A DNA stretch of 64,000 nt from an uncultured Gemmatimonadales bacterium (GTDB lineage: Bacteria; Gemmatimonadota; Gemmatimonadetes; Gemmatimonadales; Gemmatimonadaceae), in contig CAWBZV010000003.1 of assembly GCA_963793305.1 (NCBI GenBank), forward strand, positions 192,001 to 256,000, written 5' to 3'. Below the pieces are notes generated by a model that saw only the letters and a list, made by a program, of their open reading frames with translations, was not told the DNA's origin and made no database searches. Positions 56,829-63,483 of the stretch are shown one piece after another (positions within the stretch are counted from its first letter, which is position 1; every line of letters begins with the position of its first letter). The position numbers and the translations under genes were made by a program.

Positions 56829-58691
56829 CTACTTATTGACGCTCGGTGCGTTCAATCCGGCACTCGGTGGAGCGCCCCACGTGTCATTCGCCGGATTCCA
56901 GTCGGGCACCATGCCATCCGGCCAGAGCCGCGCGCCAGTCACCGCGCTTTTGACAGTGACTACCGCCTTGAACACGTTTCCGCGCGACCAAATGTCGACG
57001 GGCAGGTGAACGTCTTGCGTCGACCCATTGGCGAGCGCCAATCGCATGGACACGGGAAACACGATCGACGTGTTCTTGCTCAGGGTCACGACCGCCACCT
57101 CCGCACCGTCCTGCTCGCTGTTCACGACGTTGTCGATGCCGATATCCAGCACGTCGGTCGAGTAAAAGAACCCGCGCCAGAACCACGACAAATCCTGTCC
57201 CGACACGTTCTCCATCGTCCGGAAGAAGTCGGCCGGTGTTGGATGCTTGAACGCCCAGCGATGGACGTACTCCCGCATGGCGCGGTCCATGGTCTCGCGA
57301 CCGATGACATTGTTCCGCAGCGTGAGCAGCACCGCGCCGGGTTTGCGGTAGCCGACCGCGTCGTAGCCCTTTTCGCTGATGTGGTCGGGCGCGGTCATGA
57401 GCGGCGTCTGGGAGCCGTTGTCGACGGCGGCTTTCCAGTCAGCCAGGTATGTGCTCCAGACTGACGTCCCGGGATACCGGGCGTCATTCGCGAACGCATT
57501 CATGTACGTGTTGATCCCTTCATCCATCCACGCATAGCGCCGCTCGTTCGACCCGACGATCATCGGGAACCACTCGTGCCCTTGCTCGTGATTGAGCACG
57601 CGGAAGATCGATTGCGGATCGTCGGTGCCGTAGGGCACCATCACGAACATCGGATACTCCATCCCCGTGAGCGTCCCCGTGACCGTGGTCGCTTGCGGGT
57701 ACGGGTATGGATACAGAAGCTCCGAGTACTGCCGGATGGTCCACTGCGTCATCTCGGCGGCGGACTCCCAGCTTTTGTGTGCCTTGGCGATCTGGTAGTA
57801 CGCCTGGCAGAGAACGCCGTGCCAACTCGTCGCATCCCACCGGAAATCCGGCGCGGCCGCCCACGCCACATCTCTCACGCGCACGGCTCTGAATCGCCAC
57901 GTTTTCGTGCCCCGCGTCGTCTTGGCGACCGCCTCTGAATCCGCGATGATGGCAATGACCGCGCTCGATTCGCTCGCGCGCGCCAATCGCGACTGTTGGG
58001 TGGATGTCAGGACGTCGCGAGCATTTTGTAGAGTCCCGGAGCCCGCGACCGTGTAGCCGGCCGGTACCGTTACCGAGTAGTCGATATCCCCGTACTCGAG
58101 ATAGAACTCGCCTTGGCCGAGGTACTGATCGACGTTCCACCCGCGAACGTCATCATAGACGGCCATGCGGGGATACCACTGGGCGATCGTGTACAATGTC
58201 CCGTCGCGACCCATGCGATCCGAGCCGTGCACCGGCACGACGAACGAGTACGCCACCGCAATCGTGATCGTGCCGCCATGCGGCGGAAGCGGCGACGCGA
58301 GATCGAGCCGCATCATGGTGTCGTGGATCTTGGGCTCGACGCGCACCCCATCGACCTTCACGTCGGACAACGTGTACCCGCCATCAGTGTCCGTGGCGAA
58401 CAGGTACGACCCCTCGCTGCCCGCACGAAACAGATTCTGATCGAGTTGCATCCAGACGAACCGCAATGTGTCCGGCGAGTTGTTCGTGTACCGCACGGTC
58501 ACGGATCCGGTCACACGCTTTGCCCCGGTGTCGAGCGCGGCGGCGATCGTGTAGTCGGCCCGCTGCTGCCAATACTCTGGGCCGGGCTCGCCCGTCGACG
58601 ATCGATACGCGTTCGGCCCAGGCCAATCGTCGCGCTCTTGAGCCTGGGCCGTCACCGCGCCGAGGAGCAACACAGCGATCAGAGCTTTCAT
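56829..58691 (-). CDS. M1-family metallo-aminopeptidase (secreted)
   Basis: GMEYP; HEQGH...WMDEG; signal peptide. Confidence 0.9.
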   Translation of the reverse strand: MKALIAVLLLGAVTAQAQERDDWPGPNAYRSSTGEPGPEYWQQRADYTIAAALDTGAKRVTGSVTVRYTNNSPDTLRFVWMQLDQNLFRAGSEGSYLFATDTDGGYTLSDVKVDGVRVEPKIHDTMMRLDLASPLPPHGGTITIAVAYSFVVPVHGSDRMGRDGTLYTIAQWYPRMAVYDDVRGWNVDQYLGQGEFYLEYGDIDYSVTVPAGYTVAGSGTLQNARDVLTSTQQSRLARASESSAVIAIIADSEAVAKTTRGTKTWRFRAVRVRDVAWAAAPDFRWDATSWHGVLCQAYYQIAKAHKSWESAAEMTQWTIRQYSELLYPYPYPQATTVTGTLTGMEYPMFVMVPYGTDDPQSIFRVLNHEQGHEWFPMIVGSNERRYAWMDEGINTYMNAFANDARYPGTSVWSTYLADWKAAVDNGSQTPLMTAPDHISEKGYDAVGYRKPGAVLLTLRNNVIGRETMDRAMREYVHRWAFKHPTPADFFRTMENVSGQDLSWFWRGFFYSTDVLDIGIDNVVNSEQDGAEVAVVTLSKNTSIVFPVSMRLALANGSTQDVHLPVDIWSRGNVFKAVVTVKSAVTGARLWPDGMVPDWNPANDTWGAPPSAGLNAPSVNK

Positions 58692-60052
58692 ATCACCACG
58701 GCAAGAGTGTCGACCCGTCCGGTCGCCTCATCGATGATGGCGACACGGTGGGCATTGGTGTCCGCGACATACACTTTGCCGTCGTGATACACCACACCAC
58801 TCGGCTCGGCGAGCCCACGCACCCAGGTATCAACCCGGCGCGTCGCGGGATCGACCCACTTGATGGCGTCATTGTACGAATCCGTAATGAGCAGCCGGCC
58901 ATCGGGATGCCGCGCGATGCCCTGGGGATGCTCGAGCCGGACCTCGTCGCCCACGCCGTCCTTGTCGCCGAAGTCAAAGAGCCCAGTCCCGACTATCGTC
59001 TGCACCCTCGCATTGGCTCCCAGCGTGGCGTACCGGACGGCACTCGACTCCGCGTCCACAAAGTCCAGCCGGTCGCCACCGCCCACGATGCCCATGGGCT
59101 GTGCCAGCAATGCCGCCTGAGCAGGGCCGTCAACGATGTCTTCCCCGGGCGCGCCGGCGAAGAGCGAAGCGTGGCCGCCCTCGATGCGCCAGATCTGATG
59201 TCGCCCGGCGCCGGCTACATAGACGGCTGGCCCGACGACAGTGAGGTCCCAGGGTGAAGAGATGCGTCCCGCGATGGGCTCCATAGTTCCGCGGGAGAGA
59301 TCCCCGACTACCACCCGATGGTTCGCCCGATCCGCGATGTACAGCCGGTCGCCAGCAAACGCGACGCCCTGAGGAGACGCTAGCCCGTTGAACTCGCGCT
59401 CGACCCGCATCGCAGTGCCACCCTCGCCGAGCCGGCCGACGAGCACACGGTCGTGCCCGCTATCGGCGATGGCAATGCGATCGCCGTCGATCGTGACCTT
59501 GCCGGGGTACCGAAGGACACCAGGGGCGATTGCCGGATCATCGGGCGGGAAATGCCGAGGTGTCCGGTCGATCAGCCCGTCTGGATCGAACGCTCCAATA
59601 AGCCGCTCGATAAACGGCTCCAGCATCTCGCTCGTGAACTCACCGGCATGCGACCCGACGACATACCCGGTCGGATCGACGGCCACGACCGTCGGCCACG
59701 CCCGCACGGCGTAGCTCCGCCAGATGCGAAACTGCCGATCGTTGACGATCGGATGGAGGTTGTCCAGGCGTAACGCCGCCTCGCGGATGCGCGGCGTCTC
59801 GCGCTCGGCGATGAACTTGCCGCTCTCCACGCCGATGATCGCGATCTCGCGAGGGAACTGCCGCTCGAGCTCCCGCAACTGCGGGAGTACGTGAATGCAG
59901 TTGATTCAGCCGTAGGTCCAGAAGTCGAGCAGGACGATCTTCCCCTTGAACATATCCAGGGTCAGCGCCTGCCCGCCGGTGTTGATCCAATCGAGGCCGG
60001 ACGGGAACTGCGGGGCCCGGACGCGCGGCTGCGTCATCTCTCGTTCAGTCAT
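58688..60052 (-). CDS. Thioredoxin-like + NHL-repeat protein (NHLRC2-like), probable selenoprotein (UGA at 59906-59908)
   Basis: Two same-frame ORFs separated only by TGA: LLDFWTYG-U-INCIH; NHL repeats follow; alternative start 60037. Confidence 0.85.
59870..59887 (-). promoter_or_regulatory. Candidate bacterial SECIS hairpin CUCCCGC-AGUU-GCGGGAG
   Basis: Perfect 7-bp stem starting 18 nt after the UGA; G-containing apical loop 25 nt after it. Confidence 0.7.
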
Positions 60053-60737
60053 ATGGGAAGAGTAGCAACTCGCCCGCGGGGAAGTCGAAGACGGTGATCC
60101 ATCGACAGAAGAGGTCGGCGCCCAGCGAGCCCGCAATTTTCATATCGCTCGGTCGCACCTCGACCGACTCCGTCACGGTCACGCCGCCAGGTAGTGACAC
60201 AGTGAGATCCACGCGGCCGTTCGGTCCCGGTACAAAGGAAGTCTGCTGGTACCCGATCATGAAACGCTGACCACCGATGGTCACGAAGTTGCCCTTGAAC
60301 GGGAGGCGACTCACGGGACCATCCAGTGACAGGGCGTCGCGAGTGGTCGCGAAGGCCATGGCCGGCACGGATGCGTCGATGGCCACGACACCGTCGTGGA
60401 AAAACTTCATGCACAGGAATCCGCCAATGGGAGGATCTCCGAAGCGGTACTCTTGGCCGACCACCGCGCGCGTACCCGTGACCGTACGACCGAACGCCGA
60501 TAGCGCCCTGATCTCAGTGAAACGATTCGGGCCCTCGGCGCTCACTGCCAGCCCGCGGTCCTGAGCGTACGATTCATACAGAAAGCAATCGAACGTGCGG
60601 CCGTTCGAGAACATCAGCTGGACCGGCTCGTCGTCGATGCGCGCGGGAATGAATACGACGCCGCCGGAGTTCGTCCGACAGCGAACCATCTCCTCCACGG
60701 TGAAACCCAGCTTTTCGAGCCGCGTTGACCAGCTCAT
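60045..60737 (-). CDS. Tandem retropepsin-like protein lacking catalytic DTG motifs
   Basis: FIPARIDDEPVQLMFSNG...GGFLCMKFF..VVAID; GSLGADLF..ITVFDF; start uncertain. Confidence 0.55.
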   Translation of the reverse strand: MSWSTRLEKLGFTVEEMVRCRTNSGGVVFIPARIDDEPVQLMFSNGRTFDCFLYESYAQDRGLAVSAEGPNRFTEIRALSAFGRTVTGTRAVVGQEYRFGDPPIGGFLCMKFFHDGVVAIDASVPAMAFATTRDALSLDGPVSRLPFKGNFVTIGGQRFMIGYQQTSFVPGPNGRVDLTVSLPGGVTVTESVEVRPSDMKIAGSLGADLFCRWITVFDFPAGELLLFPYD

Positions 60738-60780
60738 TGGTCGCCTCATGTGGCGTGTGTTCCGGCACCGCGCCCATAGT

Positions 60781-61335
60781 ATGGTCATCGGCGGCATGAA
60801 TGTCTTCACGTCCGACGATTCCGACATGGGCCGGGCGGTCGCCTTGCGCGCCCGCCTCGGACTCGCGCTGGACCTCATCGACCAATACGCGCCGCGAATC
60901 GGGGTCCGGCTACGCCGCAACGTCGTCGCCATCTTCCTCTGGCGAGTCGGAGGCACGTCGTACAACCCCTACACGCGAGTGATCCTGGTGGACGTGCGGT
61001 GGGGCATGATAGGGGAGCTCGAAGATCTGGCCCTCTCCCTGGTACACGAGGCGACGCATGCGCGGCAAATGACGATGGGGCTGCGCAAGCTGCGGCGCGG
61101 CAAAGGTCTCGAGCGGCGCATGGAGGCGCACGCGGTCGCCGCGAGCATCGCCTTTGCCGACCGGCTGCCGCCCGGCAGGTGGCGGAAGCCCACGCTCGCG
61201 GATCTCGACAAGAAGTGGTGGACGCTCGAGAACCTGGAGGCGCGACTGACGAAGGATGTGAAGGAGATTGGCGTGCCCGCCGAAGCAATCCGGATGGTGG
61301 CCGGAGCCATGCGAATGCTCGGGCTGCGGCAATGA
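60781..61335 (+). CDS. Hypothetical HExxH metallopeptidase-like protein (start uncertain)
   Basis: SLVHEATHARQ with a downstream E; ATGA overlap with the next gene. Confidence 0.55.
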   Translation: MVIGGMNVFTSDDSDMGRAVALRARLGLALDLIDQYAPRIGVRLRRNVVAIFLWRVGGTSYNPYTRVILVDVRWGMIGELEDLALSLVHEATHARQMTMGLRKLRRGKGLERRMEAHAVAASIAFADRLPPGRWRKPTLADLDKKWWTLENLEARLTKDVKEIGVPAEAIRMVAGAMRMLGLRQ

Positions 61336-62420
61336 CGGATCAGATCCCGGCCCATCATCGCCCCGGTGGCGGATTTCAGAATCCCTGGGGCCCCGGGAGC
61401 CAGCAAGCGCGGTTCGGACAATTCTTGAGGTGGGCACTGTTCGAGCGCCCACGGACGACACGTCGGGGCACTCCCGACCGGGCCACGTTCGCGGCCGCTC
61501 ACCTGCCCGTGGCGCCGAGCTTCTCGGTTCGCGAGTCGCCCGAAACGCTCGCGATCACCTGGATCGGGCACTCCAGCTTTCTCGTTCAGATCGCCGGGCA
61601 AAACCTGTTGCTCGACCCCGTCTGGGGTGACCGCGCATCGCCGATATCCTGGCTCGGTCCCCAGCAATGGACCCCGCCCGGGATTCCGTTTGACGCGCTG
61701 CCGCCGGTCGACGGGGTCATCCTCTCGCATGACCACTACGACCACCTGGACCAGCCGACTGTACGGCGTTTGGTGAAGCGCTACCCCGAGGCTCAATGGC
61801 GCGCGCCATTGGGCGTGGGACACTGGTTACGCCGAAGGGGAGTGAGCCAAGTGCAGGAGGCCGATTGGTGGGACCAGACCGACCTCGGGCCCCTCAAGCT
61901 CACCGCGACACCGGCGCAGCACTTCTCGGGTCGCCGTCTCGATAATCGAAACGGGACCCTCTGGTGTGGATGGGTCATCCGCGGCGGCGCGGCTCCGCCG
62001 CGCGTCGAGGCGGCAAACAGCGCCGCTCGACTGGTCGGTTGGACCGATCCGGCTCCGCCGACTCCTCACACGGTATTTTTTGCCGGCGACACCGGCGCCC
62101 ACCCGGTTTTTCCCGAGATCGGACAGCGCCACGGCCCGTTCGACGCCGTGCTCATGCCGATCGGAGCCTACGACCCCGAGTGGTTCATGGGCCCCGTTCA
62201 CATCGACCCGGAGCGCGCGGTCTCGGCGTTCCAAGCCCTGAACGCCGGTGACGCCACCATGGTCGCCATGCATTGGGGTACGTTCCAGCTCACCGACGAG
62301 CCAATGGACGAACCCCCCAAACGCGCGACCGCTGCATGGGCGAATGCGGGTCTCCCGCCACACCGGCTCTGGATCCCATCACTCGGCGAGACGAGACGCT
62401 GGCCGTTACACACGCACTGA
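61332..62420 (+). CDS. MBL-fold metallo-hydrolase (NAPE-PLD/RomA-like)
   Basis: WIGHSSFL, SHDHYDHLD, PAQHFSGR, FAGDTG, MHWGTF. Confidence 0.92.
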   Translation: MTDQIPAHHRPGGGFQNPWGPGSQQARFGQFLRWALFERPRTTRRGTPDRATFAAAHLPVAPSFSVRESPETLAITWIGHSSFLVQIAGQNLLLDPVWGDRASPISWLGPQQWTPPGIPFDALPPVDGVILSHDHYDHLDQPTVRRLVKRYPEAQWRAPLGVGHWLRRRGVSQVQEADWWDQTDLGPLKLTATPAQHFSGRRLDNRNGTLWCGWVIRGGAAPPRVEAANSAARLVGWTDPAPPTPHTVFFAGDTGAHPVFPEIGQRHGPFDAVLMPIGAYDPEWFMGPVHIDPERAVSAFQALNAGDATMVAMHWGTFQLTDEPMDEPPKRATAAWANAGLPPHRLWIPSLGETRRWPLHTH

Positions 62421-62485: not shown

Positions 62486-62942
62486 ATGGCCAGTTCGAAG
62501 CGCACACGTCGTCCCACGAAGTCGGCCCGCAAACCTGCTCGCGCGAAGTCATCGAAGCGCGCGAGTGCGCGCAGCAGTTCTACGCGCAGAACGTCAGCAC
62601 GTCGCGCCGCGAGCGCGACGAAGACGGCCAAGGTTGCGAAGAAGGCAGCCGCACCAGCAAAGAAGGTTGCCGCTCCCGCCAAAGCTGCTGCACCGGCGAA
62701 GAAGGTTGCTGCACCGGTGAAGGCAGTGAAGGCCGCCGCACCAGCAAAGAAGGCTGCTGCACCGGCGAAAGCAGCTGTCGCACCAGCTACCCGCACCCGT
62801 AGCACCCGCGCCAGTCGCACCAGCACCCACGCCAGTCGTCGCCGCCGCCGACGCGGCGCCAAAGGCAACGAGCAAGTCGAAGAAAGCTGCGGCGCCTGCG
62901 CCGACACCTGGTCCAGTTACCAGCGAGCCGCCGCGCATGTAG
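62486..62942 (+). CDS. Histone H1-like/AlgP-like K/A/P-rich protein, probable frameshift at ~62791
   Basis: AAPAKK repeats; removing one C gives APVAPAPVAPAPTP...KSKKAAAPAP...PPRM*. Confidence 0.7.
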
Positions 62943-62955
62943 CAGCGGAGCAGCG

Positions 62956-63483
62956 TCAGCGCTGGTTGGCTGACGCTGCCCGCTGGCGCTTCATCCGCTC
63001 GTACCGCGCGGCCGCCTTATAGCGATTGCCACACCCCTCAGCGCTGCAAAAGCGCCGCGCGTGATTCTTGGTAGTGTCGTAGAAGAACAAGACACAGCCC
63101 TTCCCCTCGCAGTGTTTCAGCAGCGAGTAGTCTCCGCTCGCCAGAAACTCCGCGGCCGAGCGCGCGACCGTTGAGAGCGCGCCGACTGGGTCCGTGAACG
63201 TGGTCACGGTGCGCAGCTCGCCTTTCGTCAACTGCGAATAGCTCGGCGCCGCCTTCAACACCCGATTGATTTCCGCCGTGGCAGAAAGCGAGCGATCGCC
63301 CGCTGCGATCGACTCGGCCTGCCGACGGAGCGCGGCCCGCAGCACGTGCGCCTCCTCGACGAGCCGCGGCGAACGCCGCACCTCTCCCCCGAGCCAGGAT
63401 TTGAGGTGGTCGAAGTCGGCGATGGCGTCGACCGGCTCGCCATGCACGACCATCTCCGTATTGACGAAGTCGAGCCAGAGCAC
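62956..63483 (-). CDS. ABATE/CGNR zinc-finger regulator
   Basis: LDFVNT; C..C...FYDTTKNHARRFCSAEGCGNR. Confidence 0.92.
   Translation of the reverse strand: MLWLDFVNTEMVVHGEPVDAIADFDHLKSWLGGEVRRSPRLVEEAHVLRAALRRQAESIAAGDRSLSATAEINRVLKAAPSYSQLTKGELRTVTTFTDPVGALSTVARSAAEFLASGDYSLLKHCEGKGCVLFFYDTTKNHARRFCSAEGCGNRYKAAARYERMKRQRAASANQR

Follow-up and report, generated by a model that had tools for sequence, protein, structure and literature searches.

A gene of an uncultured Gemmatimonadales bacterium probably encodes a selenoprotein of the NHLRC2/SOQ1 family. It occupies 58688..60052 on the minus strand of a stretch of 64,000 nucleotides (assembly GCA_963793305.1, contig CAWBZV010000003.1, positions 192,001 to 256,000), referred to as the window, whose numbering is used here. 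The best explanation overall, to which we assign a probability of roughly 0.88, is a protein of 454 residues with a thioredoxin-like (Trx-like) domain and an NHL beta-propeller, carrying selenocysteine (Sec) at residue 49 and acting as a predicted cytoplasmic selenol-disulfide reductase. The Sec form of this family is apparently unpublished and widely mis-annotated. The recoding mechanism itself, UGA together with a selenocysteine insertion sequence (SECIS), is textbook knowledge and not new.

An in-frame TGA at the position of a redox cysteine

Two minus-strand open reading frames (ORFs), 59906-60136 and 58688-59878, share one frame and are separated solely by the TGA in DFWTYG(TGA)INC (59906..59908). 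From these ORFs the initial annotation had proposed a product of about 454 residues with the UGA at the first Cys of a CxxC motif, and both the ORF coordinates and the alignments bear this out. Read-through from the ATG at 60052 gives 454 residues with U49 in the motif DFWTYG-U-INC; an alternative start, ATG 60037, gives 449. In the alignment with SOQ1, the TGA falls on the second Cys of the CCINC motif, that is, the first Cys of CxxC (C431 of the C431-C434 pair). It is also aligned to the Cys of bacterial Cys homologues, and similarity extends on both sides of the codon. Cys52 (59897..59899), the predicted resolving cysteine of U-I-N-C, is the only cysteine of the protein, and the T-G of its codon is invariant across alignment A2.

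Comparison with the close relative at locus L084 revealed four synonymous and two non-synonymous codon changes before the TGA and 24 and four, respectively, after it, which points to purifying selection on both sides. The first 99 residues are 97% identical to a contig of a Gemmatimonadaceae metagenome-assembled genome. In three runs, including an RNA run, there are contigs that extend across the codon and have 2–7 differing letters; these prove neither the codon nor transcription.

Occurrence of the TGA in genomes with Sec machinery

The source genome, which is 92% complete, contains selA (E 3e-136), selB (above cut-off), selD and a tRNA-Sec gene with anticodon UCA (65.7 bits, cut-off 47) adjoining selD. 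The sel genes that the initial annotation had implied are thus present. The selD gene bears its own in-frame TGA. Further likely selenoproteins besides SelD are two formate dehydrogenase alpha subunits and a TxxU peroxiredoxin (AhpC/TSA) (C11:59733-60941, C3:1272137-1274011, C5:1224692-1225438, C12:272211-272600), and a stem-loop follows the in-frame TGA in each of these four genes. Two other genes are split over two frames, probably by assembly indels: a thioredoxin of the source genome (C2:774234-774534) and selD of genome G416 (C1:66393-67326).

Among the 40 nearest genomes the gene was found in seven, three of them from the same genus, and the TGA is present in all seven. Searches of the Gemmatimonadota gave matches in 17 of 301 genomes of the class and 20 of 401 of the phylum. 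We checked 27 matching Gemmatimonadota genomes for sel genes: 15 have the TGA, 11 have Cys and one ends short of the site. Every one of the 15 TGA carriers has selA; selD is found in 14 of them and missing from one genome that is 65% complete. G341, flagged as unpublished, is counted among these 15, and the conclusions do not rest on it. Among the CCINC genomes of family f11, selA or selD was found in none of eight. Three Gemmatimonadota genomes, G199 (L025/L073), G448 (L046/L069) and G419 (L054/L064), have kept selA and encode Cys both in the family protein and in SelD. The hairpin described below is partly decayed in all three, and its loop G is gone in G199 and G448.

In the Chloroflexota, 43 of 251 genomes matched, 31 of them with the TGA, and selB was detected in 30 of these 31. 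Inspection of 30 Chloroflexota loci showed the TGA at the site in 26 and Cys in three, while one was not parsed. The TGA was found in none of 25 Acidobacteriota matches. A pattern scan of metagenomes for the TGA form identified at least 120 stretches. Eighty were inspected: 42 hold full two-domain genes, nine hold short stand-alone Trx genes, and in 29 the gene runs off the contig or stops early. No match to the TGA pattern was found in viral contigs. A search of related loci with a Cys-coded pattern returned Cys forms in 79 of 80 cases, which serves as a negative control and not as a frequency estimate. A comparison of homologues at this site, as the initial annotation had suggested, finds TGA in some homologues, across two phyla, and Cys in other homologues.

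The UGA is likely read as Sec because the same codon and the paired hairpin recur in many genomes carrying sel genes. From these comparisons we predict that the in-frame UGA is almost certainly recoded as Sec at residue 49.

The short stand-alone Trx proteins are DipZ-like, extend 100–110 residues past the TGA and have the same U-I-N-C site, most of them with the same hairpin (L173, L174, L176, L202, L212, L218, L221; also L168 and L214). They are possibly a second uncatalogued selenoprotein subfamily.

A SECIS-like hairpin downstream of the codon

The perfect hairpin reported by the initial annotation 18 nt downstream of the UGA lies at 59870..59887 on the minus strand. It is a bacterial SECIS-like stem-loop, CUCCCGC-AGUU-GCGGGAG, and belongs to the minimum free energy (MFE) structure. 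The bacterial SECIS model, as set out in the accessible portion of PMC13188914, calls for a loop of 3–9 nt with G within its first two nucleotides, a stem of 4–16 bp, a spacing of 16–37 nt and an MFE of at most -7.5 kcal/mol. With its 4-nt loop, G at loop position 2, 7-bp stem, loop 25 nt past the UGA and -16.1 kcal/mol, the hairpin lies within every one of these bounds. Fold z-scores were -3.2, -2.3 and -2.0 for 59, 79 and 41 nt, and only -1.0 for 131 nt. When the same 11 codons were redrawn 5000 times with amino acids fixed and codons chosen by genome usage, 106 draws folded equally well and 148 formed all seven pairs.

The hairpin separates Sec from Cys members of the family. Six or seven of the seven pairs are formed in 74 of 91 distinct Sec sequences versus none of 90 distinct Cys sequences, and the loop G is present in 83 and seven of these, respectively. 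The mean hairpin MFE is -12.1 for Sec versus -4.9 for Cys sequences, a gap due in part to GC contents of 63% and 56%. At 51 Sec loci, 90.3% of stem cells are paired (slid controls, 34–67%), and 25 cells have changed on both sides, which none of 500 shuffles reached; this significance is overstated because the Sec sequences are kin. Some of the stem compensations change amino acids (Leu/Glu to Ile/Asp, Arg to Gly). The hairpin covariation that the initial annotation had proposed to look for is therefore seen as compensatory changes in relatives that hold both TGA and hairpin. The counter-evidence it had named, either reads with TGC or TGT at the codon or a genome without Sec machinery and relatives without TGA and hairpin, did not turn up.

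On its own the hairpin is weak evidence in this genome of 65% GC. In a whole-genome scan, 4,597 of 62,090 TGA sites combined a Cys-motif context with a SECIS-like stem, and the terminal TGA of the gene itself likewise has a stem downstream. The case rests on conservation. The motif-and-hairpin scan was also tried as a selenoprotein finder and abandoned for family searches, as it delivered thousands of chance candidates.

Fold, domain architecture and phylogeny

Pfam assigns a PF13905 Trx-like domain, above cut-off, and PF01436 NHL repeats. The Trx-like domain, of DipZ/TlpA type, spans about residues 8–158 (59579..60031, minus strand) and precedes an NHL beta-propeller of six blades at about residues 183–453 (58694..59506, minus strand), as delimited by PF01436 and the structural model. 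W119-P120 stands at the cis-proline position; both residues are invariant among 74 sequences, and the cis geometry is inferred from Pro163 of NHLRC2. The closest solved relatives by phmmer are SOQ1 (E 1e-77) and NHLRC2 (E 3e-58). An AlphaFold model from the 74-sequence alignment reached pLDDT 96 and pTM 0.93, and superimposes on SOQ1 (7djk) and NHLRC2 (6gc1) with a TM score of 0.91 each; it was used in place of a single-sequence model, which had a pLDDT of only 54. None of eight NCBIfam matches is a selenoprotein model or reaches a family cut-off; one repeat model passes.

The family motif is given as CC(I/V)NC in the available text of PMC6107167. Here it reads G-U-I-N-C, and a G is often found there in bacterial members with Cys. 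Full-length Sec forms have C-U-I-N-C in 47 and G-U-I-N-C in 36 of 83 cases. In the subclade of the gene, Glu or Ser takes the place of the His of GVHS (59825-59827), and the propeller is short of two loops of about 15–20 residues (near 59390 and 59270), regions that are longer in most relatives. With the exception of a single outlier of 307 residues, no Sec form seen was shorter than its members.

The propeller closes the chain in all 83 full-length Sec forms, none of which has a C-terminal domain (CTD). Bacterial NHLRC2 homologues without this domain have already been reported (PMC6107167, in part). Of the Cys forms, 79 of 109 have a further C-terminal domain; for one of these the alignment with SOQ1 extends through the CTD and takes in its Cys pair (E 3e-130), and the Cys pair is present in 59 of 60 tails checked. 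The protein studied here stops after the propeller and so has no SOQ1-type CTD with a redox Cys pair. A hydrophobic leader was found in three of 83 full-length Sec forms versus 70 of 79 three-domain Cys forms, a difference weakened by the use of a hydrophobicity heuristic and by the origin of 79 of the Cys rows in a search biased to Cys codons.

We masked the active-site and SECIS codons and calculated an unrooted FastTree phylogeny, which covers 140 of the 192 rows. In it, 54 Sec and five Cys two-domain rows, this gene included, fall together on one side (support 99). The five Cys rows nested among Sec suggest reversions, and seven Sec rows on the opposite side may indicate more than one origin of Sec. 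That the NHLRC2/SOQ1 family contains a large, ancient and unreported Sec branch, cytoplasmic and two-domain, beside an exported three-domain Cys-only branch mirroring SOQ1, is a proposal to which we give about an even chance. On this proposal, Sec and the C-terminal methionine sulfoxide reductase (Msr)-type domain would be mutually exclusive, so that selenium may stand in for an intramolecular relay.

Proposed function and alternatives

Where Sec has naturally taken the place of Cys, the residue is usually a catalytic one with a redox role. Sec at the second Cys of CCINC would mark the likely catalytic cysteine in a poorly understood family, and Sec49 is very probably the redox nucleophile. 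In the proposed mechanism, SelB carrying Sec-tRNA(UCA) would recognise and bind the hairpin just 3' of the UGA and insert Sec49. A protein would dock in the cleft that separates Trx domain and propeller, where the Sec49 selenolate would attack one of its cysteines in oxidised form; Cys52 would resolve the mixed bond, and the thioredoxin system of the cell would re-reduce the selenenylsulfide. The occurrence of Sec in proteins without a CTD argues that the Trx-NHL core has a substrate of its own. According to the accessible parts of the literature, SOQ1-Trx reduces SOQ1-CTD (bioRxiv 2024.11.01.621559), and the Trx-propeller cleft of NHLRC2 is conserved and probably protein-binding (PMC6107167). 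Because SOQ1 and the exported Cys forms carry the acceptor as their CTD, whereas the Sec forms have none, the electron acceptor would be a separate protein; given also the missing leader, a cytoplasmic partner is most likely reduced. On balance we somewhat favour a protein disulfide in trans as the substrate.

Several points, besides the limits of the leader comparison given above, weigh against the explanation as a whole, recoding included. Within the 51 Sec loci, three of seven stem pairs covary, which is no excess over shuffles (218/500), and the protein sequence constrains much of the stem. The presence of selB is not discriminating in Chloroflexota, since all 11 Cys-form genomes have it too. 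Insulin is reduced neither by SOQ1-Trx nor by NHLRC2, as stated in the available text of bioRxiv 2024.11.01.621559. A homologue of the CTD was not found in the source genome with a hidden Markov model of the CTD tails, and 63 Sec loci revealed no conserved operon or adjoining redox partner. Finally, the gene's subclade has lost the near-invariant His of GVHS, which is Glu76 here.

The main rival to reduction of a partner protein is that the Sec enzyme has as its direct target a small oxidant, or a residue in oxidised form (peroxide, methionine sulfoxide, sulfenic acid). Selenols react fast with peroxides, and the Sec forms lack both the CTD and a conserved partner gene. The SOQ1 lumenal domains show Msr activity, but in the accessible part of that study (bioRxiv 2024.11.01.621559) it is assigned to the CTD, which is missing here. 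Further, UxxC together with a cis-Pro position is a signature of reductases, and in NHLRC2 the propeller is interpreted as a protein-binding surface (PMC6107167, in part). We consider direct action on small oxidants rather unlikely.

Decoding of the UGA as Cys or Trp, by a special tRNA or by genetic code 4, would agree with Cys as the homologous residue, and UGA-to-Cys recoding systems are known from some bacteria. It is very improbable here: the only UCA tRNA listed by ARAGORN is the tRNA-SeC beside selD, the tRNA-Trp has the anticodon CCA, selA and selD are present, and both this gene and the neighbour upstream terminate in TGA. A sequencing error or nonsense mutation, leaving a pseudogene or a 396-residue propeller fragment with an internal start, would fit the fragment that gene callers annotate and the apparent frameshift in the split thioredoxin elsewhere in the assembly, but is hardly credible. 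Independent genomes from two phyla and at least 120 metagenome stretches have this codon at the identical site, the frame is open for 400–490 codons past the TGA, and both halves are apparently under purifying selection. The annotated internal start falls within the SECIS stem, and a protein begun there would have its Trx fold cut.

Gene neighbourhood

Downstream, an M1-family peptidase gene (56829..58691, minus strand), whose ATG overlaps the stop codon, is not a widely conserved neighbour. Upstream lies an ORF of 306 residues (60045..60965, minus strand) with a start overlap of 8 nt, which is not a conserved neighbour either and is retropepsin-like by a weak Atlas lead only (score 0.84). Neither this ORF nor ORF 60595-61335 on the opposite strand matches a Pfam or NCBIfam model. 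In the region 60045-61350, the alignment with L084 ends at about 60125. The commonest neighbour among 63 Sec loci is an aldo/keto reductase gene on the opposite strand, convergent and downstream (13 loci, e.g. L195:3-1220). A metallo-beta-lactamase-fold gene (Lactamase_B_2) is near nine of them, this window included (60999-62420). The ORF 62486-63022 encodes Ala/Lys/Pro-rich basic repeats, histone-like by composition, whose length differs from that in L084 by in-frame blocks.

Annotation, significance and comparison with known systems

Gene callers split such a gene, as the initial annotation had expected, and database records are indeed cut after the TGA. Among the best 120 database matches, 106 cover only 84–88% of the query and 107 are without the motif; truncated entries are named, for example, 'YncE' or 'alkyl hydroperoxide reductase'. 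A search with the N-terminal region gave no full-length entry above 74% identity, and U is absent from all 226 database proteins examined. Many database entries thus lack the active site. The accessible part of the 2026 inventory of 119 prokaryotic selenoprotein families (PMC13188914) has no NHL entry. UINC is absent from the deep-Sep main text and four supplements, and NHL is absent from the main texts of the BSepDB paper, SelCysML and GOS as far as these are available; full-text literature searches gave nothing relevant either, in a survey of texts outside the BSepDB database and subscription journals. In the passages of PMC6107167 on NHLRC2 there is no selenium form; 'selen' refers to selenomethionine labelling.

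NHLRC2 is essential in mice and is mutated in FINCA, a fatal disease. The accessible sections of bioRxiv 2024.11.01.621559 and PMC6107167 describe the protein's biochemical function as 'yet to be determined'. If our reading is true, the C-U-I-N-C members point to Cys90 of NHLRC2 as the catalytic nucleophile and would serve as bacterial models of the FINCA disease protein in which substrates can be trapped. A widespread family would also be added to the selenoproteome of soil and sediment bacteria.

Catalogued UxxC selenoproteins of the Trx fold (Trx, Prx-like, 'Redoxin family protein', SaoT, HUIPC motif) resemble the protein in having UGA with an in-frame SECIS and Sec as the first residue of the CxxC position. 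They differ in that none of the 119 families, in the available part of the inventory, has an NHL domain, and the sequence that represents the 'Redoxin family' in deep-Sep is a different one. The exported bacterial Trx-NHL-CTD proteins of Acidobacteriota, Actinomycetota, Chloroflexota and others belong to the same family, with GCINC or CCINC. Unlike the Sec forms they have Cys only, mostly a leader and a CTD, and no hairpin, and fall mostly on the opposite side of the tree. With the lumenal region of SOQ1 (PDB 7DJJ, 7DJK) the protein shares the Trx-like domain and NHL propeller at 33% identity and a TM score of 0.91. It differs from SOQ1 by Sec for Cys, Gly for the preceding Cys, shorter propeller loops, and the absence of the HAD domain, membrane helix and CTD. 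Human NHLRC2 (PDB 6GC1, 6G7W) has the CCINC motif and a C-terminal domain; it has the two-domain core in common with the bacterial protein and is cytosolic, as is predicted for the Sec form.

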